Positions 12,934 to 54,939 are shown, numbered from the stretch's first letter. The stretch is DNA of 64,000 nt from Candidatus Gorgyraea atricola (GCA_030765235.1 JAVCCW010000018.1:25465-89464), one strand, 5' to 3'. Numbers and translations: made by a program. The notes: generated from the letters alone by a model not told the origin.

Positions 12934-13055
12934 GATGTTACGAAGGTTACGGAAGGTTTCGGAATGTTACGTAAGGTTGCATTAAAAGCCTTGAAATCCA
13001 TAGCTTTTGTAACCTTCCGCAACCTTCTCTAACATTCCGTAACATTATGTAACCT
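12934..13055. repeat. Hairpin repeat family E (GTTACG-based imperfect tandem units forming a long inverted repeat)
   Basis: gttacgaaggttacggaaggtttcggaatgttacgtaaggttgc ... gtaaccttccgcaaccttctctaacattccgtaacattatgtaacc. Confidence 0.65.
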
Positions 13056-13059
13056 CCAT

Positions 13060-13548
13060 TTACAGTCTATGTATGTTAGCCTCTATCTTTCCATTGTCTA
13101 TCTCAATAATTCCGTACGATCTATATGGGGCGCAGACAGTTTCTGTGGGGCTGCCGGGATTAAAAAATAAAACACCGTCTATGTATTCATTGGCAGGTTG
13201 GTGTGAATGGCCAAAGACTATAATGTCAGGCTTTTTCGCAAGAAACTCCTCTTTCATAATATCCTTGAGTTTTTCAGGATGACCATAACCATGCATCAGA
13301 CATATCTTTTTACCAGCTACCTTGAGGATCTTTTTATCCCCTAAAGAAAAGAGCGTTTTTGTATGGTCCATGTTTCCAGATACAGCCTCTACCTTTGCTA
13401 TCTGTTTGAGTGGTTCCAGTATGCTTATGTCTATCAGGTCGCCCGCATGAAGTATGAGATCGCATCCTTTAAGCGCTGCAAGAAGATCATCCGGTAATCT
13501 ATCAGCTGCAACAGGTACATGCGTGTCAGATATAACGCCTATTCTCAT
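13060..13548 (-). CDS. YfcE/MJ0936-type metallophosphoesterase
   Basis: MRIGVISDTHV...GDLID...GHSH motifs; start moved to the internal Met. Confidence 0.85.
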   Translation of the reverse strand: MRIGVISDTHVPVAADRLPDDLLAALKGCDLILHAGDLIDISILEPLKQIAKVEAVSGNMDHTKTLFSLGDKKILKVAGKKICLMHGYGHPEKLKDIMKEEFLAKKPDIIVFGHSHQPANEYIDGVLFFNPGSPTETVCAPYRSYGIIEIDNGKIEANIHRL

Positions 13549-13566
13549 ATAGTAAGCACCTCCTGA

Positions 13567-13648
13567 AAATCCCAAATCCAAAACCGTGTTTGGGATTTGG
13601 AAATTGGGATTTATTTGGGATTTGGTAGTATTGGGATTTGGGATTTTT
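13567..13648. repeat. Hairpin repeat family A copy 1 (GGGATTT/AAATCCC degenerate heptamer arrays around a CATGTTTGGGATT-like centre)
   Basis: aaatcccaaatcc...gtgtttgggatttggaaattgggatttatttgggatttggtagtattgggatttgggattttt. Confidence 0.75.
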
Positions 13649-13660
13649 CATGTGTGTCAG

Positions 13661-15280
13661 TTACCCCACCTGCGGCTTCTCGTACAGTTCCATCAATACA
13701 TTAAGGTCTTCCATGTTCCAAACCCAAAGCTTTGCATCTTTTGCCATGAGATACGCATTTTCATTTATGCCAGCGAGTGAAATAAGGATATTTCTATTTA
13801 TCCTGTTTGCGCGAGATTTGGTTTTAGTGTTTTTTATGATCTCTGTTATCTCGGTCTCTGTTACGTGTTCTTTTTTAATAGTGCACAGCCATTTGAACCT
13901 GTTGTTCGCGGCAAGGATATTTATATTGCCAGGCACTTCAGTACTGGAACGCTCTACATCAGTAAACGATAGAAATTTATGTTTCTTCCCATTTAGCTGT
14001 ATTACATCATTCTTGAACAGCCTAAAAAGATCTACGACCCTGGATGAAAGTTCTTTTTCGAATTCCTGTAAAAACATGCTTATCTTGGTCCTTATATCTT
14101 TTTTGAAATAACCCTCTTCCAGGAGTTCATCCAGGCTAAAAGATAAGATCCTTTTTAGATAGACAGACTGGAGCCAGAAAGAGAAAAGCCTGTCTTTAAA
14201 TCTGTAAAACGAACCATTACGTACGATTATATCCATGTCAGCCAGCCTGCTTAATATTTTGGAGGCATCTCGCGCCTGCAGTCTGGATGAGGCAGCCATG
14301 TCAGCCTGTTTTTTATTTCCCGACGAAAGCGCGATGAGTAAGGCCGCGGTCTTTGACAGCAATTTACCGTCGGAGATCCTAAAGAAGAGGTTGGAAAACA
14401 GCTGGTTTATTACACCTGTTTTTTTAAACACGCTTTCTGTCAGCGCAAACTCTATAAGCTCAGTGTAACTATCAGGAGAGATCTTTCTGGAAAAAACACC
14501 TTTTTCCATCTCGTCACACAGCACCTGCATATAAAAAGGTTTATTTCCTGTAAAGGTGGCAACGAAATCCATGTACACCTGAGGCAGTGTTACACCGCGC
14601 ATCTTATCCTGCAGAAAAGAGCGCGACATATTCATATCAAAAGGCGAGAGGATCATCTTTTCAAAGTTTCCAAAAAGGAGAGCCAGTTTTTCGCTGAATA
14701 TACGCTGAGAGATCGTTGCCTTAGAACTGAGCAAAAGATACATGGTGTCTTTCTGCAGCATGATCTTTTTGGCAAGCGTGGCATAAGGGTGCTTCAAATC
14801 AAAGTTACCAAGATTATGAAACTCGTCCAGTATAAGGAGGCATCTTTTTTTGCTTTCCTCTGATATCATGGCTGTAATGTCCAGCATAAAGGAATGTCCT
14901 TCGTCGAGCCTACCCTTATCTATGTCCTGGAGTACCCTTATGCATGTCTCAGCTGTCTTCGGGTGAGTCCTTTTTAAATCCTCTATCAAGAGCACTGTGT
15001 CATGAGGCGCTGTTAGCGTAGGATCTGATCGCATTAGCTGGAAAAGAGCTGATTTTATGAATCTCTTGGCGCAGAATTCAAACGGCTCTATCTTTATCTC
15101 GAGGTATATTGGGATAATACTCTCCTTTTTTATTTGCTCTGAAGATAAGATATCTTTTATAAGAGAGGTCTTTCCTATGGAGGGTTCGCCTATAATGGCT
15201 ATATTCTGCCTGTAGCCTTCGGAAAAAGAATTCACGCGACGTATGATAGCCTCGATTATGTCTGGTCTATTGTAAGACAT
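13661..15280 (-). CDS. P-loop ATPase, 539 aa, resembling the archaeal-type/STAND-like ATPase family with an extended C-terminal domain
   Basis: Walker A GEPSIGKTSL and Walker B LLILDEFHNL. The long C-terminal region is uncharacterised; I recall this architecture as Arch_ATPase plus DUF234-like. Confidence 0.65.
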   Translation of the reverse strand: MSYNRPDIIEAIIRRVNSFSEGYRQNIAIIGEPSIGKTSLIKDILSSEQIKKESIIPIYLEIKIEPFEFCAKRFIKSALFQLMRSDPTLTAPHDTVLLIEDLKRTHPKTAETCIRVLQDIDKGRLDEGHSFMLDITAMISEESKKRCLLILDEFHNLGNFDLKHPYATLAKKIMLQKDTMYLLLSSKATISQRIFSEKLALLFGNFEKMILSPFDMNMSRSFLQDKMRGVTLPQVYMDFVATFTGNKPFYMQVLCDEMEKGVFSRKISPDSYTELIEFALTESVFKKTGVINQLFSNLFFRISDGKLLSKTAALLIALSSGNKKQADMAASSRLQARDASKILSRLADMDIIVRNGSFYRFKDRLFSFWLQSVYLKRILSFSLDELLEEGYFKKDIRTKISMFLQEFEKELSSRVVDLFRLFKNDVIQLNGKKHKFLSFTDVERSSTEVPGNINILAANNRFKWLCTIKKEHVTETEITEIIKNTKTKSRANRINRNILISLAGINENAYLMAKDAKLWVWNMEDLNVLMELYEKPQVG

Positions 15281-15583: not shown

Positions 15584-15672
15584 TATAATTAAGGACCCTC
15601 GACGCGCTTAATAATGTTCCTATTCGTCACATTATTAAACTTGCTCGGGATCAAATTCGCCTTCGGCGGATT

Positions 15673-15746
15673 TGGAGCGGGTAAGGGGAATCGAACCCCT
15701 GCTGCGAGCTTGGGAAGCTCGTGTTCTACCATTGAACTACACCCGC
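15673..15746 (-). tRNA. tRNA-Gly (anticodon CCC)
   Basis: Reverse complement GCGGGTGTAGTTCAATGGTAGAACACGAGCTTCCCAAGCTCGCAGCAGGGGTTCGATTCCCCTTACCCGCTCCA: 7-bp acceptor stem, anticodon loop TTCCCAA, GGTTCGATTCC T-arm, encoded CCA. Confidence 0.9.
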
Positions 15747-15782
15747 CTACGTTCAAATAGAGCTATTCTTCGCAGTATACTT

Positions 15783-15881
15783 CGGCGGGCAAGCCCGCCT
15801 GCACATACGATTTACCACCCGTAGCATGCTGCGAAGATTAACCGCATGTGAGCGAAGGGTGGCGGGCAAGCCCGCCACCCT
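15783..15881. repeat. GC-rich palindromes (GGCGGGCAAGCCCGCC, twice) within a larger inverted repeat, upstream of the tRNA
   Basis: cggcgggcaagcccgcctg and ggtggcgggcaagcccgccacc, flanked by cttcgcag/ctgcgaag arms. Confidence 0.55.
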
Positions 15882-16786
15882 TAAGTCGTAGTTAATTTTA
15901 AAAATTTGTTATGTCTCGATTTTATGTCTTTTTTATTTAACTTTAAGAATCTATTGACGCTGAAATCCTCGACAGTGAATGATGCCATTGTAGCGCCATA
16001 TGCAAGAGCGCCTCTTACAGTTTTCGTATCTATCTTGTTCATTTTTGCTATATAGCCCATGAATCCCCCGGCAAATGTATCTCCTGCCCCAGTAGGGTCA
16101 CATACATCTTCTATCGGGTATGCCGGGATCAAAAGCGCTGAGGCATTCTTACAGAACAATGCCGCGCCATACTCGCCCCTTTTTATTATCGCGAATCTTG
16201 GACCGAGCGAAAGCAGGTACTTTCCTGCCTTTATAATGTTTGACTCGCCAGAAAGAAGCCTGGCCTCAGTGTCATTTAAAAATATAGCTGATGTCTTGCG
16301 TATGGTTTTCTTTAATGTCTTACCTTTGCTCTGGATCCAATGATTCATGGAATCGCAGCCTGTAAATCGTTGATCCTTTAGCGATTTCAAGATAAATAAC
16401 TGGAGGTCAGGATCTATATTGGCCAGAAATACATAAGGACTTTTTTTATACTCATCAGGTATCACAGGCTTAAAATCCGCGAATACATTTAGCTGTGTAT
16501 CTATTGTCTTTGCGCAATTTAAATCATCCACATACGAGCCTTCCCATCGAAATGTCCTGCCCTTTTTTGTTTCCAGGCCTGACAGATCCACGCCGAATGA
16601 TCTTATAAGCTTCTTATGCTTAAGGGGAAAATCTTTTCCTACAGTAGCAACAAGATTCACGCCACTAAAAAAACTGGCGCTTACTGAAAAATAGGTAGCT
16701 GAACCACCGAGCACCTCTTTTGACCTGGCTTGAGGCGTAGTAATGGTATCAAGCGCTACAGAGCCTATTACAAGTATTTTGCTCAT
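15881..16786 (-). CDS. PfkB-family carbohydrate kinase; probable D-glycero-beta-D-manno-heptose-7-phosphate kinase (HldE/RfaE domain I as a separate gene)
   Basis: MSKILVIGSVALD, GGSA and C-terminal DTTGAGDTF. Same operon as gmhA and the hldE adenylyltransferase domain. Start shares 1 nt with the thiC stop. Confidence 0.75.
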   Translation of the reverse strand: MSKILVIGSVALDTITTPQARSKEVLGGSATYFSVSASFFSGVNLVATVGKDFPLKHKKLIRSFGVDLSGLETKKGRTFRWEGSYVDDLNCAKTIDTQLNVFADFKPVIPDEYKKSPYVFLANIDPDLQLFILKSLKDQRFTGCDSMNHWIQSKGKTLKKTIRKTSAIFLNDTEARLLSGESNIIKAGKYLLSLGPRFAIIKRGEYGAALFCKNASALLIPAYPIEDVCDPTGAGDTFAGGFMGYIAKMNKIDTKTVRGALAYGATMASFTVEDFSVNRFLKLNKKDIKSRHNKFLKLTTT

Positions 16787-18042
16787 TAAAAATATTTCTC
16801 CATTGTTTTCATGGAACAATAGTTACTGCACATCGTGCACACGTCTTTATTCTTTGGCATGGATGATTTCCTGTAACGGGTCGATTTTACAGGGTCTATG
16901 GATTTCTTTATCTGGGCCTTCCAGTTTCTTGTTGAGCGGTGTTTTGACATTTCTCTATCCCAGTTCAATGCACCTGGTACCCTCTTTGCTATATCAGCTG
17001 CGTGCGCGGCGATCCTGGAGGCTATGACCCCGTCTTTTATGTCATTTTCATCAGGTATCCTCAAATGTTCTGATGGCGTGACATAACAAAGAAAATCCGC
17101 GCCGTAAAATGCGGCAAGCGCGCCTCCGATAGCGCCTACTATATGGTCATAACCTGGCGCAATATCTGTTACAAGCGGGCCCAGCACGTAAAATGGCGCG
17201 TTATTGCACAGCTTTTTCTCTATGACTACATTTGACTCTATCTGATCTATTGGTACATGGCCAGGGCCTTCAATGATCACCTGGACATTGTTTTGCCTGG
17301 CCTTTTCCGCGAGCTCGCCAAGCGTAATAAGTTCCTGTATCTGAGGTCTGTCAGTCGCATCCACTATCGACCCTGGCCTCATGCCATCGCCAAGACTCAG
17401 TGTTATGTCGTATTTCTTTGCTATCCTGATTATCTCGTCAAAATATTCATAGAGAGGATTTTCTTTTTTATTCAGCATCATCCATTCGACCAGGATAGAG
17501 CCGCCTCTTGACACAACGCTGATCAGTCTTTTCTGTTTCTTCAGGCGGCTTACCGCGCTCCGCGTTACGCCACAGTGAACTGTAAAAAAATCCACGCCAT
17601 CAGCTGCCTGTTCTTCAAAGGTCTCGAGAATATCCTCTTTTGACATGCGCGAGACAGCGCCTCTTTTTTTATGCGCCTTTATAGCTGCTTCATATATAGG
17701 TACAGTACCTACTGGTACGCTTGAAGCCTTTATGATCGCTTTCCGGATCTTTCTTAGATTTCCACCTGTACTCAGGTCCATGACTGCGTCCGCGCCATAC
17801 TCTATCGCAATACGCACTTTTTTTACTTCCCTCTTTATATCTGCGTCATCCTGCGATGTGCCGAGGTTTGCGTTTATCTTTGTACGCAGGCCTTCGCCAA
17901 CAGCGCACGGGGCTATTTTTCTCTTTGAATTTTTAATGAGGGCAATACGGCCCTGCCTGATGCGTTTCCTCAATTCATCAAGGCCCATACTCTCGTTTTT
18001 AGAGACTTGTTTTATTAGATCTTTTTTCGATATTGTAGGCAT
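16786..18042 (-). CDS. thiC: Phosphomethylpyrimidine synthase ThiC
   Basis: GLRTKINANLGTS and C-terminal CTMCSNYCS. The start could instead be the internal Met at 17988, which would avoid overlap. Confidence 0.92.
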   Translation of the reverse strand: MPTISKKDLIKQVSKNESMGLDELRKRIRQGRIALIKNSKRKIAPCAVGEGLRTKINANLGTSQDDADIKREVKKVRIAIEYGADAVMDLSTGGNLRKIRKAIIKASSVPVGTVPIYEAAIKAHKKRGAVSRMSKEDILETFEEQAADGVDFFTVHCGVTRSAVSRLKKQKRLISVVSRGGSILVEWMMLNKKENPLYEYFDEIIRIAKKYDITLSLGDGMRPGSIVDATDRPQIQELITLGELAEKARQNNVQVIIEGPGHVPIDQIESNVVIEKKLCNNAPFYVLGPLVTDIAPGYDHIVGAIGGALAAFYGADFLCYVTPSEHLRIPDENDIKDGVIASRIAAHAADIAKRVPGALNWDREMSKHRSTRNWKAQIKKSIDPVKSTRYRKSSMPKNKDVCTMCSNYCSMKTMEKYF

Positions 18043-18415
18043 CGAATCTTAGCTTTCTGTATTTGCGGCTTGTGTCCTGGTCCAGGATCTTGCAGCACTC
18101 TTCCATGACCCTGAGGGACTCTTTCACGCGTTGAATATTAGACATAAATATGTCCTGGATGTCTGTACCTTTTTGCTTTTCAAAATCCTCGAATTTCACC
18201 GGATCCTTCTTTGTGTCTCTTGCCTTAACGAGTTGCCTGAGTGCCAATCTCTTTGAAGAGAGCATCGCCTCTGTTGCAGAGTGACGCATGGCCTTCAAGG
18301 ATCTCGAGATCTTTTTATCTGCCACTACAAATCTCGCTATATCCTCGCATACCCTCAGACCTTCCCGTGTCCTGTTTAGATTTGCATCGATGATCTTTAA
18401 AAGTTCTTGATTCAT
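17999..18415 (-). CDS. hypothetical protein, 139 aa (start at the Met that makes an ATGA overlap with the upstream gene)
   Basis: [29 protein letters not shown]...; conserved-looking but I cannot assign a family. Confidence 0.45.
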
Positions 18416-18885
18416 GAGGATCTTATTTTTTTGATCAACTTCCTTGTGGAAAACCCTTTTATATAGGGCAGGCTTTTTACGAGGCCACCTAAGGATTGAA
18501 CAAAATCTCCTCCTACGATATCTTTTGCCTTCCAGTCCCCGCCTTTTACCAAAATCTTTGGCTTTATTGCCTTTATCAGATTTAATGGCGTGAGGCTGTT
18601 GAATATTACAATAAAATCCACACATGCAAGCGCTGAAAGCACCTTTGCCCTGTTTTTCTGAGCATTTACGGGTCTTTTTCTGCCTTTTAGCTTTCTTACA
18701 GAACTGTCGCTATTCAGTCCCACCACCAGGATGTCTCCTAAGGACCTTGCCTTTTGCAAATAAGCAACATGTCCCACATGCAGGATATCAAAGCATCCGT
18801 TGGTAAAAACAATTCTTTTTTTACCTTTAGATTTTTTTAACGCCTTTATTACTTCAGGCAGGTTTTTTATTTTATTACAAAGCAT
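18412..18885 (-). CDS. hldE: D-beta-D-heptose 1-phosphate adenylyltransferase (HldE/RfaE domain II, cytidylyltransferase fold)
   Basis: [14 protein letters not shown] HxGH motif; 157 aa. Confidence 0.85.
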
Positions 18886-19440
18886 CTTCTATTATCTCGC
18901 AGACAATGTGTCCGATTATGCTATGGGACTCCTGGATACGCGGAGTACTGTTTGAAGGCACGTTCACAGAGACATCAGCTATCTCTACAAGCGCTCCTTT
19001 TGATTTTCCTATGAGCACAGCTGTTTTCATATTCATCTTCGAGGCCTTTTCTATCGCGCGTATTACATTTTTTGATTTGCCGCTGGTCGATATACCCAGG
19101 GCCATGTCTCCTTCTTTTCCAAGTGCCTCTACCTGTCTTTCGAATATAGCTTCAAAACCATAGTCGTTTCCAAGCGCAGTCAGTGTAGAGACGTTGGTGC
19201 TTAAGGCTATTGCTGGCAGGGCCTCTCTCTCTTTGCGAAACCTGCCCACCAGCTCTGCTGTAATGTGAATACTGTCAGCGGCGCTGCCGCCATTGCCAAA
19301 TATAAGGATCTTGTTGCCCGACTTTACTGTAGCAAGCATCATCCTGGCAAGCGCCTCTATGTTACTGACCTGCGTCTTAATGAGCGCGTTCTTGACCTCA
19401 ATATCCTCTTTTATTAACTCTATTATCTTCTTTTTCATAT
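18875..19440 (-). CDS. gmhA: Phosphoheptose isomerase (SIS domain)
   Basis: [20 protein letters not shown]...; start placed at the Met just downstream of palindrome F. Confidence 0.88.
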
Positions 19441-19450
19441 CAAACCTCCT

Positions 19451-19490
19451 AAAGTAGACAAAACAGACAGTGTCTGTTTTGTCTACTTTA
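19451..19490. repeat. Palindrome family F copy 2
   Basis: aaagtagacaaaacagacagtgtctgttttgtctacttta. Confidence 0.85.
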
Positions 19491-20519
19491 GCCAAAGAAG
19501 ATCTTGGCGATGTTGTATAGTTCCATGTCAACAGTCTTTAGCTTGGCTACAGCAGCTTCTAATGAAACGCCCTTTACCTGGTTGCCTTGTAATGCAGCCA
19601 TCTTGCCATAATCCTTTTTTAGCACCAGCTCCATTGCTTTTATGCCGAAACGTGTGCCAAGCACTCTGTCAAAGGCAGTGGGCGTACCACCCCTTTGTAA
19701 GTGGCCAAGCACTGTGACTCTTGTTTCAAAACCTGTATTTTTCTCTATTGCTTCACCTAATGCATGGCCTATGCCGCCCAGGCGTATATGGCCAAACGCA
19801 TCTAACTTTTCCTCTTGCTTGACAAGTTTACCCTGCTTAAACTTCGCGCCTTCTGCCACTACAACAATGCTGAAGCTCTTGCCCCTAGCGTGGCGCTTCT
19901 TTAAAAGAGCGCATACCTCATCCATATCTATTGGAAGCTCTGGTATCAAAATAATATCAGCGCCTCCTGCTAATCCAGACTCTACAGCAATCCAGCCTGC
20001 GTGCCTGCCCATTACCTCGACTACCATGATCCTGTTATGTGACTCGGCTGTAGTGTGCAGCCTGTCAATGGCCTCAGTGGCAATATTTATTGCAGTATCA
20101 AACCCAAACGTTACATCTGTGCCTGAAAGATCATTGTCAATGGTCTTTGGCGCGCCAACTACACTCAGCCCTTCTTTGTGTAACTTTGATGCTACGCCAA
20201 GCGTATCCTCGCCGCCAATGACTATTAGCGCCTCCAGCCCCATTTTTTTAAAATTCGCTTTTACCTTTTCTACATCCCCTTGTTTTTTATAAGGATTTGT
20301 CCTTGAGGTGCCAAGTATTGTGCCGCCTTTTGGCAATATCCCAGAAACAGACTTAAGGTCTAATTTTTCAGTATTGTTTTCTACTAATCCTTTCCATCCA
20401 TTCTTTATACCTATTACTTCATACCCTTCTTTGAGCGCAAGCCTCACAACTGCCCTGATCACTGAATTTAACCCAGGACAATCCCCTCCTCCTGTTAATA
20501 CACCAACCCTCTTTGTCAT
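19488..20519 (-). CDS. pfkA: 6-phosphofructokinase
   Basis: MTKRVGVLTGGGDCPGLN...GGEDTLG...MGRHAGW. Confidence 0.9.
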   Translation of the reverse strand: MTKRVGVLTGGGDCPGLNSVIRAVVRLALKEGYEVIGIKNGWKGLVENNTEKLDLKSVSGILPKGGTILGTSRTNPYKKQGDVEKVKANFKKMGLEALIVIGGEDTLGVASKLHKEGLSVVGAPKTIDNDLSGTDVTFGFDTAINIATEAIDRLHTTAESHNRIMVVEVMGRHAGWIAVESGLAGGADIILIPELPIDMDEVCALLKKRHARGKSFSIVVVAEGAKFKQGKLVKQEEKLDAFGHIRLGGIGHALGEAIEKNTGFETRVTVLGHLQRGGTPTAFDRVLGTRFGIKAMELVLKKDYGKMAALQGNQVKGVSLEAAVAKLKTVDMELYNIAKIFFG

Positions 20520-20540
20520 TTCAACCTCCGTATAGCAATT

Positions 20541-20665
20541 AAATCCCAAATCCCAATAATACCAATACTACCAAATAAATCCCAATTTCAAAATCCCAAA
20601 CATGGTTTTGGATTTGGGATTTTGGATTTATTTGGGATTTGGTAGTATTTGGATTTTGGATTTTT
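20541..20665. repeat. Hairpin repeat family A copy 2 (about 125 bp, long inverted repeat)
   Basis: aaatcccaaatcccaataataccaatactaccaaataaatccc...catggttttggatttgggattttggatttatttgggatttggtagtatttgg. Confidence 0.8.
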
Positions 20666-20693
20666 CCATTGTTTGGTTATTTCGCGTTCCCCA

Positions 20694-21305
20694 TCAATAT
20701 TTAATTTCGCCTTTAAAACCGCTTTCAGCAGCGTCCTGTGTTTCTTGTTTTGATTGTTTTTTATCTTTTCGCTTATCTCGCTGCGCTATCTTTGAGACAT
20801 GGACCTTTATCGTAACCTTTTCTTCCAGGCCAAGCATCTCCTGCAGCCGTATGCGAATAGCGCCCTGTACCTTCTCAGTAGTCTCTGGTATGTTCACATC
20901 AGAATAAAGCACGACCCTTGCGGTTACGAGGACTCCATTACGGCCTACAGATATGTTTGATCTTATATCTCTTATCTCAGGTATCCTGTGCGTAAGTTTC
21001 TTTACGTAGTCTTCTATTGCTGACAAAGAGAGCGTCACCTGTCCATCCGGGTTCTCAAAGGCAATGGCCTTGTTTTTACGCAATTTTCCTATGGATAGCT
21101 GCGCGATCGATATATTGACGAGTATCAATGCCGCGCCTGTCAATGCCATGCCCATTCTTAGATTTTCTGTCTGCGAGAGGTATTCGATCGCACTCAGCAC
21201 TGAATCAAGAGAAGCGGTTCGAAGAGACAGCGCTATAAGCACTCCTCCTATGATAGAAAAAAACAGTGTATAAATAAAGATTGCGAGGATATTAAAAATT
21301 CTCAT
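20694..21305 (-). CDS. Asp23/AmaP-like membrane-anchored protein (alkaline shock family); tentative
   Basis: N-terminal TM helices then a soluble domain; Lys/Glu-rich tail. Confidence 0.45.
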   Translation of the reverse strand: MRIFNILAIFIYTLFFSIIGGVLIALSLRTASLDSVLSAIEYLSQTENLRMGMALTGAALILVNISIAQLSIGKLRKNKAIAFENPDGQVTLSLSAIEDYVKKLTHRIPEIRDIRSNISVGRNGVLVTARVVLYSDVNIPETTEKVQGAIRIRLQEMLGLEEKVTIKVHVSKIAQRDKRKDKKQSKQETQDAAESGFKGEIKY

Positions 21306-21321
21306 GGTTTACCTCCGCGGG

Positions 21322-22668
21322 TTATCCGCCAAATTTTAATTTCTCTACGTAATCTGTTGCAAAATCTCCCCGTAAAAACAGCGCGTCATTCATTACATGC
21401 TTATGGAACGGGATGGTGGTCTTTGTCGGCGAGATTAAAAATTCGTCCAGCGAACGCCTCATTACCTTTATCGCCTCTTGTCTATTTTTGCCATAGGTGA
21501 TGATCTTGGCTATCATAGAATCGTAATAAGGCGGTATGGTATAGCCTGAATATACGTGCGAATCTACTCTCACGCCAGGGCCGCCTGCTGGCAAAAATAT
21601 CTCTATCTTGCCAGGACACGGCATAAAATCTTTCTCGCTGTCCTCGGCATTTATCCTGCATTCTATGGCAACACCTTTCACCTTTACATCGTCCTGCTTG
21701 TAAGCGAGTTTCATGCCAGAAGCGATCTTTATCTGTTCTTTTACTATATCTATGCCTGTTACCATTTCTGTTACCGGGTGCTCGACCTGGATCCTTGTAT
21801 TCACTTCCAGAAAATAAAAATTCTCGTATCTGTCAAGCAGGAATTCTACTGTGCCGGCATTCAGGTAATTACATGCCTTTGCCGCTTTAATGGCCATGTC
21901 ACCTATCTTTTTCCTTAATTTAGAATCCATGGCTGGCGAAGGCGATTCTTCTATTAGTTTTTGATGCCGCCTCTGTATAGTGCAATCTCTTTCCCCGAGA
22001 TGTATCGTATGGCCGTGCCTGTCAGCCAGGATCTGGACCTCAACGTGCCTGGGTCTTTCTATATACTTTTCTAAATATACGTCTGGATTCCCGAATGCTG
22101 CCTCTGCCTCTTGTTGGGCAGTCATGAGCGCGCTCACGAGCCGCACATCATTATGACAAACTCTCATGCCTTTGCCGCCGCCTCCTGCAGAGGCCTTGAT
22201 TATAACCGGGTATTTCAACCTCTTGGCTATTTTTATAGCATCTTCTTTTGTTTTTATAATATCTTTACTGCCTGGTATGACAGGTATACCTATCTTTTGC
22301 ATGGTCTGGCGCGCAGTCATTTTATCGCCGAGAAGCCGCATATTTTCAGGCGTAGGGCCAATAAAGGTAATGTCACATGAGTCGCATATCTCAGCAAAGT
22401 GCGCGTTTTCAGCTAGAAAGCCATAGCCTGGATGTATTGCATCAACATCTGTGATCTCAGCAGCGCTTATGATAGCAGGGATATTCAGATAGCTTTCTGT
22501 GGGCGATGTAGAGCCTATACACACAGCCTCATCCGCTAATCTTGTATGCAGAGATTCCGTGTCAGCTTCTGAATAGACAGCTACTGTGCGAATGTCCATT
22601 TCCTTGCATGCGCGGATCACTCTTATCGCTATTTCACCCCGATTGGCTATTAATATCTTAGAAAACAT
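21322..22668 (-). CDS. accC: Acetyl-CoA carboxylase, biotin carboxylase subunit
   Basis: MFSKILIANRGEIAIRVIRAC...; ATP-grasp motifs; start moved to the internal Met. Confidence 0.95.
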   Translation of the reverse strand: MFSKILIANRGEIAIRVIRACKEMDIRTVAVYSEADTESLHTRLADEAVCIGSTSPTESYLNIPAIISAAEITDVDAIHPGYGFLAENAHFAEICDSCDITFIGPTPENMRLLGDKMTARQTMQKIGIPVIPGSKDIIKTKEDAIKIAKRLKYPVIIKASAGGGGKGMRVCHNDVRLVSALMTAQQEAEAAFGNPDVYLEKYIERPRHVEVQILADRHGHTIHLGERDCTIQRRHQKLIEESPSPAMDSKLRKKIGDMAIKAAKACNYLNAGTVEFLLDRYENFYFLEVNTRIQVEHPVTEMVTGIDIVKEQIKIASGMKLAYKQDDVKVKGVAIECRINAEDSEKDFMPCPGKIEIFLPAGGPGVRVDSHVYSGYTIPPYYDSMIAKIITYGKNRQEAIKVMRRSLDEFLISPTKTTIPFHKHVMNDALFLRGDFATDYVEKLKFGG

Positions 22669-22674
22669 AGGCAG

Positions 22675-22752
22675 AAATCCCAATACTACCAATAATACCA
22701 ATACTACCAAATAAATCCAAAATCCCAAATCCCAAAACATGTTTGGGATTTT
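22675..22752. repeat. Hairpin repeat family A copy 3
   Basis: aaatcccaatactaccaataataccaatactaccaaataaatccaaaatcccaaatcccaaaacatgtttgggattttt. Confidence 0.8.
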
Positions 22753-22755
22753 TCA

Positions 22756-23208
22756 TTATGTCGGTTCCACCATGAACAGCGCTTGTCCGTATTCAACTGG
22801 TTCAGCATTTTCTACCAGCACTTCGACTACTTCACCCTTTACCTCTGACTTTATTTCATTCATCAGCTTCATCGCTTCTATAATGCATACTACCTCGCCA
22901 ACAGCCACGACCTTGCCTATTTCCACGTAGGGCTTTGCATCAGGCGAGGACGATCTGTAAAAGGTGCCTACCATGGGTGTCTTTATGGCTGTGAGTTTCC
23001 TGGCTAATTCTTCTTTTGCTGCCGCGCCTTGATCTGGCCTGATAGTCTGCACTGTCCTTGCTGCGCTCGGATCTTCAGTGATCGCCTCAAAGTTTCCGGA
23101 AGGCGATTTCCTAAGTTTTATCCTCGTGCCTTCCCGTTCGATCTCCAGCTCGGAAAGCCCATTCTCATTCATTAAGTTGATCAACTCTTTGATCTCTTTT
23201 AGGTTCAT
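22756..23208 (-). CDS. accB: Biotin carboxyl carrier protein
   Basis: EAMKLMNEI biotinyl-lysine motif. Confidence 0.9.
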   Translation of the reverse strand: MNLKEIKELINLMNENGLSELEIEREGTRIKLRKSPSGNFEAITEDPSAARTVQTIRPDQGAAAKEELARKLTAIKTPMVGTFYRSSSPDAKPYVEIGKVVAVGEVVCIIEAMKLMNEIKSEVKGEVVEVLVENAEPVEYGQALFMVEPT

Positions 23209-23258
23209 GATTGACCTCTGTTTTTGTCACACTAAAGTGTGACCTACAATGTGAATGA

Positions 23259-23819
23259 TTACGCCCGGCCTAAGTATTTTTTTGTCCTGGTATCTACGAG
23301 GATAGTCTCCCCTTCATTTATAAAAAGCGGTACAAGAACAGTCATGCCAGTCTCTGTTTTTGCGGGCTTTGTCCCTGCCCTGGATGTATCGCCTCTTATC
23401 CCCGGCTCAGTGGATACTATTTTTAATTCAATAGAAGTAGGCAGTTCCAATGACAGGACATTTCCTTTGTGGACCAGCGCGGTTACCTCCAGATTTTCCT
23501 TTAGATAATTTACTGCGTCGCCAAGCTGGTCGCTATGAAGAGACATCTGATCATATGTCTCATGGTCCATGAACTCGTATATATCTTTTGACTGGTAAAG
23601 GAACTGTAAGTTCTTTTTCTCTATGTAGGCGAGCTCGAATTTTTCATTGGGCCTGAATGTCCTGTCTATAACAGCTCCTGTCTTTATATTCTTTAATTTT
23701 ACACGCATGAATGCCCCGCCTTTTCCAGGCTTCACGTGTTTACCGTCTACGATAAAATAGAGTATCCCTCCCATTTCTATGCTCAGTCCGTTTTTTATCT
23801 GATTAAGTGATATACTCAT
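23259..23819 (-). CDS. efp: Elongation factor P
   Basis: KPGKGGAFMRVKLKN. Confidence 0.95.
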   Translation of the reverse strand: MSISLNQIKNGLSIEMGGILYFIVDGKHVKPGKGGAFMRVKLKNIKTGAVIDRTFRPNEKFELAYIEKKNLQFLYQSKDIYEFMDHETYDQMSLHSDQLGDAVNYLKENLEVTALVHKGNVLSLELPTSIELKIVSTEPGIRGDTSRAGTKPAKTETGMTVLVPLFINEGETILVDTRTKKYLGRA

Positions 23820-24734: not shown

Positions 24735-24795
24735 CCAATGCCCAATTACCAATGACCAATAAATTCCCAATTACCAATTTCCAATTGGTCATTGT
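24735..24795. repeat. Hairpin repeat family D (CCAATTA/TGGTAAT heptamer-like units)
   Basis: ccaatgcccaattaccaatgaccaataaattcccaattaccaatttccaattggtcattg. Confidence 0.7.
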
Positions 24796-26215: not shown

Positions 26216-26232
26216 AATAACTTCCTCTTCCT

Positions 26233-26264
26233 CTTGTAGGCCAGGTTTAAACCTGGCCTACAAG
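26233..26264. repeat. Palindrome family G copy 1 (TGTAGGCCAGGTTTAAACCTGGCCTACA)
   Basis: Perfect palindrome centred on GTTTAAAC. Confidence 0.85.
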
Positions 26265-41722: not shown

Positions 41723-41766
41723 CCGAGGTCCAGCCTCGGCTTTTGAAAAAGCCGAGGCTGGACCTC
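41723..41766. repeat. Palindrome family H copy 2
   Basis: ccgaggtccagcctcggcttttgaaaaagccgaggctggacctc. Confidence 0.85.
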
Positions 41767-43171
41767 AAACTTGCGCTGCGATTTTTTTGCCGAATTCCAG
41801 GTAATCCTTGGCCATCTTGTTGCTTGGCGCTTCTGCGTAGATCCTGAGAATAGGCTCTGTTCCAGAAAGTCTCAGCATAAGCCAGCTGTCATCCTCCACG
41901 ATAAATTTGTAACCATCACATGTCTTTGTCTCTTTTACAGGCCTTTCCAGGATTTTTTTGAGAGGCGTGGTTTTTAAGAATTCCATCAGTTTTTTCTTTT
42001 TGTCGTCGGGATAATCCATGATATCTATCCTTGTATAACAAAAACTTCCGTATTCCTTTTCCACATCAGCCAGTATTTCCAGTATGCCTTTTTTCCTGTG
42101 TGCCATCATTTCGATAAGCAATATCCCTAAAAGCATCCCGTCTCTCTCAGGTATGTAACCCTTGACCCCTATTCCTCCTGATTCTTCTCCTCCTATAAGG
42201 ATATCTTCATCGAGCATAAGCCTGCATATATACTTAAAACCCACAGGTGTCTCGTATAGTTTCAGATTATATTTTTTTGCAATGCGTTCTATAAGAGTGG
42301 TGTTGGAAACTGTCTTGACTACTCCGCCGCTCCATTTTTTATCCTCTACAAAATGAAGTAAGAGCAGCGCCATTATCTGGCCGGCATTCATGTATCCGCC
42401 TTTTGGCACAACTGCCGCGATCCTGTCCGCGTCGCCGTCATTTACTATCGCGATATCAAACTTGCCTTTTTTCATTTCCTTAAACACTGCCTCTAAATTT
42501 TTAGGGATAGGTTCAGGGTTTATGCCGCCGAAAAGTGGGTCACGGCCTGTTCTCATCTGAGTGACCTGAATGCCTGTATCTTTCAGGATTTCCTTTATAT
42601 AACCATCCCCGACCCCATGCATGCAGTCTACCAGGACATTGAGCTTTGCTTTCTTCAGGGCCTTCCCATCTATATAAGATTTTACAAATTTCATATAGTC
42701 TGGTTTTAGATCCACCATCTTCACTGCCCCTGAAGCAACAGCCTCTTTTAAAGGTGTGCTTTTTATCTCGTTCTTCCCAAGAAAAGATTCAACAGATTTA
42801 GTTATGCCCTCGTCCGCGGTGCTTGCGTAATGCGCCTTTATTTTTATACCGTTATAAGAAGGTGGGTTGTGGCTGGCGGTGATCATCACTCCACCTGCTA
42901 ATTTTTTATTTTTTATCGCAAGGCTTACAAATGGTGTAGGAACTGCCTTGTCTGAAAGCAACACCTTTATGCCATTAGCTGCGAGCACACATGCGACCAG
43001 CTCAGCATATTTCTCGGACAGAAACCTCCAGTCATAGCCTATGACCATTGTTGCGCCATTACCCTTGAAATGATCTGCGATGGCCTGCGAGACTATCTCT
43101 ACATTCTCAAAAGTAAAATCCTCTGATATTATCGCTCTCCATCCATCGGTGCCAAACTTAATCGCCATCAC
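41765..43171 (-). CDS. Phosphoglucomutase/phosphomannomutase family protein
   Basis: TASHNPPSYNGIKI active-site Ser loop. Confidence 0.88.
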   Translation of the reverse strand: MMAIKFGTDGWRAIISEDFTFENVEIVSQAIADHFKGNGATMVIGYDWRFLSEKYAELVACVLAANGIKVLLSDKAVPTPFVSLAIKNKKLAGGVMITASHNPPSYNGIKIKAHYASTADEGITKSVESFLGKNEIKSTPLKEAVASGAVKMVDLKPDYMKFVKSYIDGKALKKAKLNVLVDCMHGVGDGYIKEILKDTGIQVTQMRTGRDPLFGGINPEPIPKNLEAVFKEMKKGKFDIAIVNDGDADRIAAVVPKGGYMNAGQIMALLLLHFVEDKKWSGGVVKTVSNTTLIERIAKKYNLKLYETPVGFKYICRLMLDEDILIGGEESGGIGVKGYIPERDGMLLGILLIEMMAHRKKGILEILADVEKEYGSFCYTRIDIMDYPDDKKKKLMEFLKTTPLKKILERPVKETKTCDGYKFIVEDDSWLMLRLSGTEPILRIYAEAPSNKMAKDYLEFGKKIAAQV

Positions 43172-43881
43172 TTTCCTCCGTGTAATTTTCTCACTGCCTC
43201 TTTAGCATCTTTTGCTCCAAAGAAATAAGAGCCGGCTACAATCACATTTGCACCAGCGTCTAAAACTAACTTAACATTTTTATCATTTATCCCACCGTCG
43301 ACCTCTATATCTCCAGCATATAGTTTTCGAGCCTGTTTTATTTTTGGTATTACTGAATCAATAAATTTCTGCCCTCCGAACCCAGGATGAACTGACATTA
43401 GAAGAATCATGTCGACTTCACCCAGTACGCCTTCTATGCAGAAGGACGAATCAGGATTAAGCGACAACCCTGCCTTTTTGCCAAGAGACTTTATCTCGCT
43501 CAGGACCTTTTTAACACGCACTTCATCTATCTTATCCACAGACCTCGAAGTCTCCACCCTTGTCGCTTGTTGCTTGTCGCTTGTCCCTAACGTATAAGTC
43601 TCCGCATGCACAGTGATGATATCGCTTCCGGCATCTGCAAATGCCTTCAAAAGCTTATGCGGCTGGTCGATCATGAGATGAACATCTAGAGGCAATTTAG
43701 TACATCTCTTCACTGCCTCTACAATAAGCGGCCCTATAGTAATGTTAGGCACGAAACGCCCGTCCATTACATCAACGTGTATCAAGTCTGCTCCGGCATC
43801 TTCGATCCTTTTTATCTCATCGCTCAGCCTTGCAAAATCAGCCGACAATATGCTCGGCGCTACCAATATCTTTTTCATCAT
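43168..43881 (-). CDS. rpe: Ribulose-phosphate 3-epimerase (with an inserted heptamer-repeat-encoded loop)
   Basis: LVAPSILSADFARL...HVDVMDGRFVPN. The extra segment LGTSDKQQATRVETS is encoded by (CTTGTCN)x4 at 43551-43580. Confidence 0.9.
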   Translation of the reverse strand: MMKKILVAPSILSADFARLSDEIKRIEDAGADLIHVDVMDGRFVPNITIGPLIVEAVKRCTKLPLDVHLMIDQPHKLLKAFADAGSDIITVHAETYTLGTSDKQQATRVETSRSVDKIDEVRVKKVLSEIKSLGKKAGLSLNPDSSFCIEGVLGEVDMILLMSVHPGFGGQKFIDSVIPKIKQARKLYAGDIEVDGGINDKNVKLVLDAGANVIVAGSYFFGAKDAKEAVRKLHGGK

Positions 43882-47391: not shown

Positions 47392-47435
47392 CCCTACATT
47401 TGTAGACCAGGTTTAAACCTGGTCTACAAATGTAG
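47392..47435. repeat. Palindrome family G copy 3 (compensatory variant TGTAGACCAGGTTTAAACCTGGTCTACA)
   Basis: cctacatttgtagaccaggtttaaacctggtctacaaatgtagg. Confidence 0.85.
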
Positions 47436-48605
47436 GCCCTTGCCTTTAATGATATCTATATCCTTGTCGCCTCTACCGGATAGGCAGATGGCTATGATTT
47501 TATTTTTGTTCAGCTTCGGCGCTAGTTTTTTTACTGCATAGTATATGGCATGGCTTGGCTCAAGGGCTGGGATAATGCCTTCTGTCTCAGATAACATTCT
47601 AAAGCCTTCTAAACCTTCTTTATCATTTACAGCCACATACTGGGCGCGGCCAATGTCTTTGTAATACGAATGCTCCGGGCCTACGCCTGGGTAGTCCAGG
47701 CCTGCGGAGATCGAATGCGCGACTTTTACCTGGCCGTCTTTATCCTGTAACAAATAGCTCTTACTTCCATGCAAAACCCCGGGTTTACCTTTACAGAGTG
47801 CTGCACCGTGTTTGCCGCTTGCTAAACCTAAGCCGCCTGCTTCTACGCCGATAAATTTCACCCTTGTCTTAAAAAACGTGTGGAAAAATCCTATGGAATT
47901 GCTTCCTCCGCCAACGCATGCCACCATGTAATCTGGAAGTCGGCCTTCATATTTTAAGATCTGTTTCTTTGTCTCTTTGCCAATAACTGCCTGAAAATCA
48001 CGAACCATTGCAGGATATGGGTGTGGGCCTACTACAGAGCCTATTATATAATGAGTTGTACGAACATTTGTAACCCAGTCTCTTATTGCTTCATTGGTCG
48101 CGTCTTTAAGAGTCTTGCTTCCTGAATAAACAGGTATTACCTTTGTGCCAAGAAGCTTCATTTTTAATACATTCAACGCTTGACGCTCTATGTCCTCTAT
48201 GCCCATATATACTTCGCAAGGAAGCCCAAACATAGCTGCAGCAGTAGCTGTGGCAACACCATGCTGGCCAGCGCCTGTCTCAGCTATAATGCGCGACTTG
48301 CCCATCTTTACAGCCAAAAGCACCTGGCCAAGCGTATTATTTATCTTATGCGCGCCTGTATGCAGCAGATCCTCGCGTTTAAGATAGATTCTTGTGCCTG
48401 TTTTTCTGGACAGGTTCTTGGCAAAATAAAGCGGCGTGGGCCGACCTGCATAGACCTCCAGCAATTCACCTAATTCACGCTTAAACTTAGCATCTTTAAG
48501 AGCCTTTTTATATTCCCTCTCCAGCTCCTCAAGCGCTACCATAAGCGTCTCAGGCACAAACTTCCCACCAAATCCCCTGAATTTACCATTCTTATCAGGT
48601 AGCAT
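47424..48605 (-). CDS. trpB: Tryptophan synthase beta chain
   Basis: [12 protein letters not shown]-lysine motif. Confidence 0.95.
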
Positions 48606-53559: not shown

Positions 53560-53583
53560 GTCGCTTCAGCCCCTCCTCTGTCA

Positions 53584-53645
53584 GACCTGGCAAGGCTGGA
53601 CCTCGGCTTTTTTAAAAGCCGAGGTCCAGCCTTGCCAGGTCTGCT
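53584..53645. repeat. Palindrome family H copy 3 (variant centre TTTTTTAAAA, longer arms)
   Basis: ctggcaaggctggacctcggcttttttaaaagccgaggtccagccttgccag. Confidence 0.85.
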
Positions 53646-54266
53646 TTAGCGTTTCTTAAATAAGGATATACGTTTTTCTTCCCCTTTTATCAGGCGGGAT
53701 ATGTTTGGACGGTGTTTATAGGTGATCAGGAGACATAAGAGGCTCGTGAAAATCACTATCTCGGTTGCTTCTCCGAATACGAGCGCGAATATGGGTATTG
53801 ATATGGACGCTATAATGGATGCCGCAGATACAAAACCTGTTAAAGAAAAAGCAATGCCCCACACCAGAAAACCAAGCCAGAATATCTTTGGTATCAGACC
53901 GACTACGACACCCGCGCTTGTTGCAACGCCTTTGCCCCCTTTAAATCTCAAAAATATTGTCCAGCTATGGCCAGCTATCGCGGCTAAACCTGCTAAGATC
54001 CTGTATAGTTCAGGCCGCGCTACTGGCGCAAGATGCATGAAAAAACTGGCGATGTATGTCGCGCACAAAAATCCCTTAAAGATATCCAGCGCAAGCGCGA
54101 TAAAGCCAGGCACTTTCCCAACTACTCTAAAGACATTTGTCGCGCCTACATTGCCGCTTCCATATTCCCTTATGTCCACACCTTTAAATAAACGTCCAAA
54201 TATGTAGGCTGTGGGAATTGAACCAATAAGATAACTAGCTATGAGTCCGACTAACAATATAATCAC
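53646..54266 (-). CDS. plsY: Glycerol-3-phosphate acyltransferase PlsY
   Basis: GSGNVGATNVFR. Confidence 0.92.
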   Translation of the reverse strand: MIILLVGLIASYLIGSIPTAYIFGRLFKGVDIREYGSGNVGATNVFRVVGKVPGFIALALDIFKGFLCATYIASFFMHLAPVARPELYRILAGLAAIAGHSWTIFLRFKGGKGVATSAGVVVGLIPKIFWLGFLVWGIAFSLTGFVSAASIIASISIPIFALVFGEATEIVIFTSLLCLLITYKHRPNISRLIKGEEKRISLFKKR

Positions 54267-54817
54267 AGTTTTGCGCCTTCGAGTTCTTTTGAGCCGCGCC
54301 AGATATAGTCTATTCCGGAAAGGATTGTAAAAAATACTGCGGGATAGATAAAAAATTTATTGTATTTAAATGTTATGAGGATCGCCAATATCGCTATCAT
54401 CTGAAAAAAGGTAGTTATCTTTCCAAGCCAGCTGGGCTTTATCTTGATCTCGCCTTTTAAGAAATACATGATCATAGAACCTATGACAATGATTATGTCG
54501 CGAGTCAATACCACAAGCACTGCCCAAGCAGGTATGCGAAAATCCTGCGGTATACTTTTGACTATGGACAATGATATAAAAGCGCTCGCGATCAATAGTT
54601 TATCAGCTATGGGATCAAGTATTATGCCTAATTCTGTAATTTGGCCGCGGCTTCGCGCAATACCACCATCAATGGCGTCTGAAAAGGCTGCGAGAGCGAA
54701 TATAGCGAGCGCCACAAATCTCAGATGCGGCATGGCATCGCCATAATACAAGACACTGGCTATAAAAAATGGGATTATGAGAATGCGGAATATAGTTATT
54801 TTATTGGCAAGATTCAT
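54263..54817 (-). CDS. pgsA: CDP-diacylglycerol--glycerol-3-phosphate 3-phosphatidyltransferase
   Basis: DAIDGGIAR...GIILDPIADK CDP-alcohol phosphatidyltransferase motif. Confidence 0.88.
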   Translation of the reverse strand: MNLANKITIFRILIIPFFIASVLYYGDAMPHLRFVALAIFALAAFSDAIDGGIARSRGQITELGIILDPIADKLLIASAFISLSIVKSIPQDFRIPAWAVLVVLTRDIIIVIGSMIMYFLKGEIKIKPSWLGKITTFFQMIAILAILITFKYNKFFIYPAVFFTILSGIDYIWRGSKELEGAKL

Positions 54818-54823
54818 AAGATA

Positions 54824-54939
54824 AATCCCAAATTCAAATACTACCAAATCCCAAATAAATCCAAAATCCCAAAGCATGTTTGGGATTTAGAAATTGGGAT
54901 TTATTTGGTAGTATTGGTATTATTGGGATTTGGGATTTT
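54824..54939. repeat. Hairpin repeat family A copy 4
   Basis: aaatcccaaattcaaatactaccaaatcccaaataaatccaaaatcccaaagcatgtttgggatttagaaattgggatttatttggtagtattggtattattgggatttgggatttt. Confidence 0.8.

Follow-up and report, generated by a model that had tools for sequence, protein, structure and literature searches.

Tandem arrays of 7-nt units, GGGAATC in Xanthomonas campestris and X. citri and GGGGA(C/T)T in Nostoc, are about 90% intergenic and lie mostly between co-directional genes near the upstream open reading frame (ORF), and at 70-75 loci in Xanthomonas two convergent arrays are able to form a stem-loop (Rehm et al. 2015, PMC4692102). Heptamer slippage is reported to be unusually frequent in some bacteria and has tentatively been tied to the polymerase (cited in PMC4692102); the STRR heptamers of cyanobacteria and the TAACTGA repeats of Beggiatoaceae are broader heptamer kin (PMC4679880). 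REPINs are hairpins whose arms are repetitive extragenic palindromes (REPs), each a short palindrome usually tagged with GTAG or CGTC (PMC3733652); RAYT transposases mobilise them, and compensatory changes are reported to be frequent in them (Bertels and Rainey 2011, PMC3116915). Typical MITEs (miniature transposable elements with inverted repeats) have short terminal inverted repeats, TA at their termini and a target duplication, and the NEMIS/Correia hairpins are targets of RNase III (Delihas 2008, PMC2229807). A 64,000-nt stretch of Candidatus Gorgyraea atricola DNA (GCA_030765235.1, JAVCCW010000018.1:25465-89464; hereafter the window) was analysed for long intergenic hairpins with arms built of short degenerate units. 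What emerged are miniature, probably mobile hairpin repeats whose design has not been described in Omnitrophota (a search of the literature on this phylum for hairpins or repeats returned nothing relevant). They are read here, at a probability of about 0.7, as lineage-specific non-autonomous mobile DNA of the MITE/REPIN kind inserted in short or overlapping operon junctions. This reading rests on dispersed copies with sharp ends, families specific to lineages, presence and absence in relatives, decay without compensation, and one-armed remnants.

Nine elements were located by Tandem Repeats Finder (TRF) and an inverted-repeat search, all in intercistronic gaps between co-directional minus-strand genes whose identities were checked with Pfam (the window is 43% G+C, and its minus strand carries nearly all genes). 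They measure 60-140 nt and have inverted ends (e.g., AAATCCC...GGGATTT). An earlier note on this DNA had described several families of long hairpins, their arms of short period, in intergenic gaps of named operons, and all of those places were confirmed; dispersal and recent insertion, the main property of the elements, had been missed. Two full-length hairpins of family A, A1 (20541-20668, ~128 nt, between the asp23-like gene and pfkA) and A2 (54820-54940, between acsC and pgsA), lie 34 kb apart in opposite orientations. A1 and the reverse complement of A2 were 87.7% identical over ~130 aligned positions (76% in the same orientation), the identity extended to positions at which the hairpin's own arms mismatch, and the largest difference was a single 7-nt gap. 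B1 (35665-35803, between RACo and cooC) likewise aligned best with the reverse complement of the second family B hairpin, B2 (63200-63320, between folD and metF), at 72.9% identity (67.4% in the same orientation); relative to B2, B1 has one unit more on both arms.

The arm pattern of family A gave six matches in the window against 0.00 expected. It gave none in 42 other loci (536,807 nt), 38 of which were accC loci of GTDB genomes, obtained by searching the AccC protein of the window in one genome per species; these were mostly metagenome-assembled and single-amplified genomes labelled Candidatus Omnitrophota, with AccC 98% identical to that of the window in one (L005), 83-89% in about twenty and ~70% in a further group. 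In a scan of metagenomes the pattern was found in at least 120 contigs, and at least 75 matched A1 by BLAST. Among the contigs listed, at least 38 full-length copies were 79-95% identical to A1 and had unrelated flanks. In their alignment conservation leaps from ~0.3-0.5 to at least 0.9 at both borders, rising exactly at AAATCCC on one side and, on the other, dropping past GGATTT. Loop length and loop sequence are both hypervariable, and copies differ mostly by substitutions and by indels of sizes other than 7. Many contigs begin or end within a family A copy, and in some short contigs there are as many as six A-like sites. Copies lie in both orientations with respect to the genes beside them (17:9).

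Two contigs could be placed against the window. L094 is syntenic with 15881-23819 (AccC 87% and PfkA 86% identical); it has a family A copy directly upstream of tRNA-Gly, a site empty in the window, and a hairpin of another family at asp23|pfkA. In L098, a homologue of window gene 60400-62316 has a family A copy on either side; the corresponding junctions in the window measure 4 and 9 nt. Family A is thus common to several Omnitrophota species, at least two besides that of the window, and its sites differ in each. A scan of viral contigs gave five chance matches and no true family A copy, and no further copies of B, C or E were found in the related loci and metagenome contigs examined.

The copies carry no sign that their pairing is maintained. 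RNAalifold on 37 family A copies returned no consensus structure, since the repeats permit register shifts; the fold of the consensus was imposed instead. With it, 80.5% of cells were paired, compared with 80.8% after the 3' partners had been shuffled among sequences, and the covariation score was 0.068 (0.073 shuffled), without compensatory changes. Covariation across copies, raised in the earlier note, was accordingly absent beyond shuffles. The pairing of family A is inherited from a master sequence and then erodes, with no sign of local selection on structure.

Comparison with related genomes, also foreseen in that note, showed the occupied junctions to be mostly short or overlapping there. 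Five junctions were compared in 14-27 relatives each, and most spacers measured 2-46 nt. At accB|accC, L005 reads TGAtaATG and carries no element, and most relatives have 2-15 nt. Spacers were 19-46 nt at asp23|pfkA in ten relatives with a full-length asp23 match, 5-13 nt at ATPase|phosphoesterase in 13 of 15 (23 nt in L033, 63 nt in L022), 2-25 nt at phosphoesterase|HIT in 13 of 14 (38 nt in L033), and 14-45 nt at dehydroquinase|M24 where measurable. The nearest genomes for the acs cluster were reached via AcsD homologues (90% AcsD identity in L171-L174, 88% in L175-L177), and L171-L174 have the gene order of the window over ~20 kb. In these, RACo and cooC overlap by 13 nt (L171-L175), acsD and acsE by 10 nt (L171-L174), and the dehydroquinase and M24 genes by 4 nt (L171-L174; AAAAAATGAATTAC in L171 and L174). 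The reciprocal gain was also seen: at M24|EFP, a junction with a 4-nt gene overlap in the window, L171 and L173 carry a hairpin of 125 nt made of AAACCCT/AAATCCT units. At acsD|acsE, L175-L177 have a different 111-nt hairpin with GGTTACG-type units and L180 and L181 a GTAG-tagged palindrome; other relatives have their own inserts of 283, 183, 151 and 111 nt at asp23|pfkA, and further inserts lie elsewhere. Different inserts at shared junctions mean that the junctions have been struck repeatedly by different elements in different lineages. By this comparison the elements are insertions rather than conserved structures. Look-ups of the exact asp23, accB and acsD proteins returned only the same population with identical elements, and no strain-level empty sites.

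Six of the nine elements (E, A1, C, B1, A2 and B2) form one long imperfect hairpin each, with a minimum free energy (MFE) of -31 to -77 kcal/mol and a z-score (z) of -4.2 to -9.5 relative to dinucleotide shuffles, 0 of 200 shuffles being as stable on either strand. E (12931-13059, between the metallophosphoesterase stop and the HIT gene) has arms of ~10-nt units GTTACGGAAG (TRF period 10, 4.3 copies, 81% matches), inverted termini ATGGAGGTTAC...GTAACATCCAT, and an MFE of -50.5 kcal/mol (z -6.6 on the sense strand, -7.6 on the other). C (33917-34010, between acsD and acsE) is made of TGTGTAA/GGTGTAA units (TRF period 7, 91% and 83% matches), has an inserted part of ~70 nt, and folds at -31.6 and -35.9 kcal/mol (z -4.3 and -4.4). 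The corresponding values were -47 and -49 kcal/mol for A1 (z -5.2), -46 and -49.6 kcal/mol for A2 (z -6.8 and -7.2), -76.9 kcal/mol for B1 (GTTGTGR units, TRF period 7; z -7.6 and -9.5) and -68.9 kcal/mol for B2 (z -7.1 and -6.8). As the two strands fold about equally, a DNA-level and an RNA-level hairpin are indistinguishable via the asymmetry of G-U pairs.

The other three elements, A3 (13566-13651, between the AAA ATPase and the metallophosphoesterase; pattern match at 13607-13632), A4 (22675-22756, between accB and accC) and D (24735-24792, between the dehydroquinase and the M24 peptidase; CCAATTA units, TRF period 7/14/25), gave no significant long hairpin (z -1.5 to -2.5; -2.5 / -1.5 for A3, -1.6 and -2.0 for A4, -1.9 and -2.4 for D). 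Each has one long arm and a stub, in A3 a long A/C-rich arm in the sense RNA with a short partner only, and all three are one-armed remnants. D is tied by BLAST to an A-like site in L058; it is a relative of family A that has diverged and does not stand as a family of its own. The account of at least five families, each forming a long inverted repeat, thus loses D as a family and holds, as to folding, for the six hairpins and not for the three remnants; B2 lies beyond the end of the span that had been given for the families.

By TRF families B and C have 7-nt units, A and D combine 7-nt units with variants of 9-11 nt (family A sub-units GGTAGTATT and AAATAAATCC), and E has 10-nt units, which leaves the 7-nt unit claimed earlier standing for families A-D and not for E. 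Matches were only 66-75% with 10-17% indels in A, B and D, and a cleaner 83-91% in C. No arm is a plain tandem array; within a family the unit variants follow one fixed order from copy to copy. In the stems the variable base of each unit yields ~6-bp helices parted by single mismatches. The C-rich arms of A1, B1 and C contain 0, 2 and 1 G and self-fold at an MFE of 0.0 kcal/mol; with so strong a strand bias a single arm cannot pair with itself. The 7-nt enrichment was found in the window, where TRF gave 15 non-overlapping period-7 arrays and 3 in a composition-matched shuffle, the elements supplying most of the excess. Close Omnitrophota relatives showed no general excess (13 arrays, 7 in the shuffle) and 8-mers were commoner there, so the periodicity belongs to the elements and not to the DNA of the clade generally.

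A sliding RNAfold scan by raw energy overlooked the AU-rich family A, and a self-BLAST hairpin finder was used instead over 1.24 Mb (window, relatives and metagenome contigs), which gave 70 long imperfect hairpins. Their best TRF period was 7 in 31, 14 in 8, 9 or 11 in 17 (mostly family A sub-periods), 8 in 2, 10 in 2, and 13 and 12 in one each; 8 had none. About 13 of 17 periodic hairpin families have a period of 7 or 14, with units outside family A that include AGGTGTT, AGAAACC, AGTTTAC, AAAGTAA, GTACSGC, TCGTCCC, AATGACA, CACAGAT and GGTTACT. The 7-nt periodicity across unrelated sequences stated earlier thus extends to most families and is not universal (two have a period of 8, L010 and L080, and two of 10, E and L133). 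This recurrent 7/14-nt design supports, without proving, a common origin or constraint, and a common generating mechanism, as suggested before, may be inferred. Inverted heptamer arrays also turned up in two chance contigs without family A, in L118 as perfect (CCCAATC)/(GGGGATT) runs at 1-80 and 2216-2299, like the Nostoc STRR unit, and in L138 as a GGGTTAG-unit hairpin around an AT-rich loop (1723-1848, 2365-2554); the design thus extends beyond Omnitrophota.

Heptamer arrays were also observed in coding sequence. On the coding strand (GACAAGS)n occurs in three unrelated ORFs (34863-34891, 43559-43585 and 9328-9345), giving the peptides VTSDKGQGTRV in AcsD, GTSDKQQATRV in ORF 43168-43881 and GKGQGTRK in ORF 9039-9611, the last followed by (CTATCAG)x4 = SSQLSAIS (9292-9321). 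The stretch in AcsD is an indel hotspot, homologues having 0, 6, 8 or 16 extra residues. On the plus strand (CTGATAG)n is cyclically TAGCTGA, one base off the TAACTGA repeat of Beggiatoaceae.

In the sense direction an element begins at or a few bases past the upstream stop and ends ahead of the downstream Shine-Dalgarno (SD) sequence and ATG, an exact placement that follows if only insertions keeping both survive. Two elements make closer contact with the upstream gene. The window acsD ends TTGTGTAAGGTGTAA (DLCKV*; gene end TGTGTAAGGTGTAA) and its homologues end ELCKM, DLCKVK or DLCKN; given this shared C-terminus, the outer 16 nt of the C 5' arm (33994-34009) are native coding DNA plus the stop. 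This native end already amounts to two family C heptamer units and pairs with the 3' arm, hinting at local seeding. At B1, RACo ends KKWLL* with its stop within GCTGTGA, the first unit, right before GTTGTGA units; relatives end KKWLT*. When filled and empty sites were compared, C had ACAGGA(G/C) on both sides, both copies sharing a C absent in relatives, and B1 had GTGGCT upstream and ATGCCA downstream, compared with ATGGCT in the empty site, which suggests possible short target duplications at C and B1.

Several of these observations, and some others, weigh against mobile insertion. The native outer stem of C fits an origin in place better than a ready-made insertion, and C and E are single-copy in all sequence examined, without evidence of dispersal. 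Between species with protein identities of 57-87%, family A keeps a conservation of 80-95%, and conservation in excess of the proteins implies constraint or horizontal spread. A search for target-site duplication at all offsets around the 38 family A copies gave a mean best 7-mer match of 4.71 (null 4.37), L060 alone reaching 7/7. No transposase domain or RAYT was found in the 30 window ORFs scanned or in the short contigs. The last point is an asymmetry that neutral selfish insertion does not predict: 17 of 28 family A copies, in either insertion orientation, have an ATG no more than 12 nt from the transcription-upstream end, typically as ATGA(A/G/C)AAATCC, and 5 of 28 have the mirror CAT at the downstream end (Fisher p = 0.002).

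B2, D and E likewise begin with an ATG. The ATG-led ORF of family A is always open through the first arm (MKNPKSKYYQIPNKSKIPNPK) and ends at variable places after 24-49 codons, on which ground a conserved small protein was rejected. The one-armed A3, A4 and D each have an ORF that reaches from the upstream stop to the downstream start. In A4 it has 32 codons, opens at the TAATG that includes the accB stop and closes 8 nt inside accC; in D it has 23 codons, runs through the element and closes with the ATGA that overlaps the M24 start codon. The upstream ATG may be due to selection for a relay ORF, to target preference or to post-insertion inversion of the palindrome interior; a relic of a duplicated start loosely fits B1, A3 and A4 but not the copies that have a normal downstream SD/ATG. 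The elements also affect gene calls. The longest accC ORF (21322-22740) is extended by 24 codons read from a hairpin arm (MFWDLGFW...), similar false N-terminal extensions occur at pgsA, acsE, pfkA and the M24 peptidase, and a public gene call annotates a 32-aa ORF within A4 (L169 972-1070).

The contacts at acsD and RACo favour a genesis in place without transposition, in which a heptamer seed in the native junction, often the final codons and stop of the upstream gene, was expanded by slippage and the array then copied inverted by a template switch. The extra unit per arm of B1 over B2, the 7-nt gap between A1 and A2, families of its own in every species, and the period-7 excess of the window together with heptamer arrays within coding regions fit it as well. 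Independent origin of family A at 75 or more loci is made impossible by the shared non-periodic unit order, arm mismatches and borders; B occurs in two copies at unrelated junctions, and in most other families the upstream gene end is unlike the unit. As a full account it is judged unlikely, and it may explain the birth of families, not their spread. Function in RNA, as RNase III sites, 3'-exonuclease barriers or translation-coupling relays tuning neighbouring cistrons, is judged less probable still. It would be in keeping with the position of all elements within co-directional operons between stop and SD/ATG, with the great stability predicted for the hairpins as RNA, with the canonical RNase III encoded in the window (5582-6304) and the cleavage of NEMIS/Correia by that enzyme (PMC2229807), and with the upstream ATG and the bridging ORFs of A3, A4 and D. 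However, the junctions are element-free in the closest relatives, where the same operons have overlapping genes; the two orientations and the lack of compensatory covariation speak against it, as do mini-ORFs with variable ends and no conserved peptide, the absence of an Rfam match, and a resemblance to terminators limited to the family A tip.

The G-rich units raise a further candidate, G-quadruplex (G4) or i-motif regulatory repeats whose 7-nt period would be G3N4 spacing, by analogy with the Xanthomonas GGGAATC heptamer, which folds into a G4 in vitro (PMC4692102). Families A (GGGATTT) and B (GGGTTGT) do have G3 runs ~7 nt apart, and a canonical motif lies in B2 (63318, minus strand = sense). 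Yet this is the only one of the nine elements with such a motif (the window holds three in all), G runs are lacking in many families of this design (AAAGTAA, AATGACA, AGTTTAC, CACAGAT, TGTGTAA), and the G-rich arm base-pairs with its complementary arm in a hairpin of far greater stability, which makes this candidate very improbable.

If the elements are mobile insertions, their arms would have arisen, and would still change, by replication slippage of ~7-nt units, a tendency visible in the genome background, and a fold-back or inverted-duplication step may have made the second arm. Copies would then be spread by a trans-acting enzyme recognising the folded single strand. With no general target duplication in family A, a transposase of the HUH/Y1 type (IS200/RAYT kind) is the leading guess, and the occurrence of family A in both orientations argues against strict strand specificity of such a single-strand transposase; no parent insertion sequence sharing the element termini was seen in the 64 kb or the short contigs. 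The regular mismatches, 6-bp helices broken at each seventh base, may keep the palindrome imperfect and hence tolerable. Elements within operons would be co-transcribed and yield long RNA hairpins cleavable by the encoded RNase III, presumably as a side effect; given the absence of elements in the nearest relatives, any effect on mRNA processing would be secondary. A bolder version, held as doubtful, is that Omnitrophota host an undescribed class of mobile hairpins, in which families would be born locally, a 7-nt seed at the end of a gene, stop codon included, expanding by slippage and then being copied by fold-back, and would be spread by an enzyme that reads structure, recognising a helix broken at each seventh base and not a sequence. 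Such an enzyme would produce many unrelated sequences sharing one design, and the class might also explain the kept upstream ATG, as a relay ORF restoring translational coupling across the insertion.

Heptamer simple-sequence repeats consist of head-to-tail copies of one 7-nt unit at high identity, their length varying by whole units. In architecture the nearest described arrays are the inverted GGGAATC arrays of Xanthomonas, and inverted heptamer arrays between co-directional genes are thus already on record (PMC4692102). As in the Xanthomonas and Nostoc arrays, length and sequence vary between close relatives and the units contain stop codons. Those arrays have one dominant unit in nearly perfect repeats, whereas here there are many unrelated units per genome and a fixed degenerate unit order copied as a whole 120-nt hairpin with sharp borders; dispersal of whole elements over loci and species is undescribed for Xanthomonas and Nostoc. 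From these arrays, and equally from REPINs and MITEs, the elements differ by uniting whole-element dispersal with a fixed order of degenerate 7-nt units in the arms, and by the many unrelated families in one design.

The elements share with REPINs (PMC3116915) a form as ~100-nt extragenic hairpins, several families per genome, conserved arms with a variable loop, single arms as decayed remnants, no obvious target duplication and assemblies that break at them, and they are replicated in multiple extragenic copies (six hairpins in the window; at least 38 full-length A copies). Unlike REPINs, family A has no compensatory changes, and a 7-nt periodicity is foreign to REPs. As no arm can pair with itself and the GTAG/CGTC tag is absent at the element ends, these are not REPs in the strict sense. 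The statement of the earlier note that the repeats resemble neither REP nor BIME elements is borne out for the arms and was too strong for their behaviour, that of dispersed recent insertions of MITE/REPIN type. With bacterial MITEs (Correia/NEMIS, ERIC, RUP, RPE, YPAL; PMC2229807) they have in common a size below 200 bp, an A+T-rich, non-coding, intergenic and lineage-specific nature, co-transcription, long imperfect stem-loops and occasional in-frame ORF fusions with neighbours (PMC2229807), and they are small non-coding multi-copy elements with terminal inverted repeats. Unlike in MITEs, the whole element is one inverted repeat of short tandem units, and no signature of TA termini and target-site duplication was seen.

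Two other classes were considered and rejected. A CRISPR array (clustered short palindromic repeats with regular interspacing) has identical 24-48-nt direct repeats and unique spacers of similar length; here the units are 7-10 nt and contiguous, in two inverted arrays without spacers, and the distinction from CRISPR drawn earlier is upheld. An intrinsic terminator has, on the transcribed strand, a short GC-rich stem-loop with a U run immediately behind it. Terminator flags fell on the family A tip only (A2 sense, A4 antisense) and on none of B, C and E, and the stems, 40-60 bp long, either are AU-rich or have no U tail. The sites that evidently look like terminators in this genome are different, perfect GC-rich palindromes bearing T runs, e.g., GAGGTCCAGCCTCGGCTTTT/AAAAGCCGAGGCTGGACCTC. 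The only match in the window at Rfam 15 gathering scores was tRNA-Gly at 15676-15746, with none for the elements.

Pfam confirmed the genes around the elements: RACo, a cooC-type ATPase, acsD and acsC (two CdhD-family subunits), pterin-binding acsE, folD and metF, and likewise accB, accC, pfkA, the Asp23-like protein, pgsA, the metallophosphoesterase, the HIT protein, the dehydroquinase and the M24 peptidase. Other palindromes lie nearby. A nearly perfect palindrome of 39-43 nt, AAAGTAGACAAAACAGnCAGTGnCTGTTTTGTCTACTTT, has three intergenic copies (2466-2504, 19449-19491 and 56341-56383), two of which differ centrally by a compensated pair (GACA/TGTC vs GTCA/TGAC). A GTAG-tagged family of perfect palindromes, (T)GTAGGCCAGGTTTAAACCTGGCCTAC(A), at 26230-26267, 29981-30016, 47393-47436 and 33072-33109, looks like a true REP; its variants GTAGACCAGG...CCTGGTCTAC and GTAGGTCGGA...TCCGACCTAC keep perfect symmetry via changes on both arms, and it sits at junctions that are overlapping or tight in L171 (e.g., Memo|LPG synthase). 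The repeat P2, GTAGGCCAGG...CCTGGCCTAC, also carries a GTAG/CGTC tag, unlike the heptamer hairpins. A palindrome resembling a bidirectional terminator, GAGGTCCAGCCTCGGCTTTTnAAAAGCCGAGGCTGGACCTC, stands at operon ends (39873-39920, 41725-41766 and 53582-53643; L171 12210-12246, L175 4805-4843) and, unlike the heptamer hairpins, is conserved in sequence in related species.

Three structured gaps were also noted. The ~1.6 kb at 37707-39320 is gene-poor and contains two similar inverted-repeat pairs (37764-37990 and 38573-38856) sharing TAAAAGCTAAAAG...GTCTTTTAT, together with terminator-like hairpins; no Rfam match was found in it and no Pfam domain in its small ORFs, and at the equivalent position L171 has three different genes (a Gly-zipper protein, a HATPase and a 1057-aa protein). 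The 376-nt gap upstream of the RNase III gene (5206-5581) holds a 28-nt GC-rich inverted repeat (5354-5381/5536-5563, 93% complementary, with 154 nt between the arms); a canonical G4 motif lies there too, at 5292. Within 15584-15880, tRNA-Gly(CCC) is encoded on the minus strand at 15673-15746. Next to it are a structure of very high stability (-68 kcal/mol over 140 nt; inverted repeat 15746-15858) and, at 15855-15882, a perfect palindrome rich in G and C.

If the elements are mobile insertions, an uncultivated phylum known from metagenomes would carry a dense load of miniature hairpins, with four A copies, two B copies and several palindrome families in 64 kb. Contigs that end in elements would mean that binning and annotation pipelines lose sequence and call spurious N-terminal extensions. 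Wood-Ljungdahl and fatty-acid synthesis operons would have been split between genes that are translationally coupled and overlapping in the nearest relatives, and the insertions would serve as natural experiments on the intercistronic structure that such operons tolerate. The 7-nt period in more than a dozen unrelated families, together with one stem that starts in native coding sequence, would give a handle on the origin of small mobile repeats, and the species-specific, polymorphic families would be usable as strain markers for these organisms.

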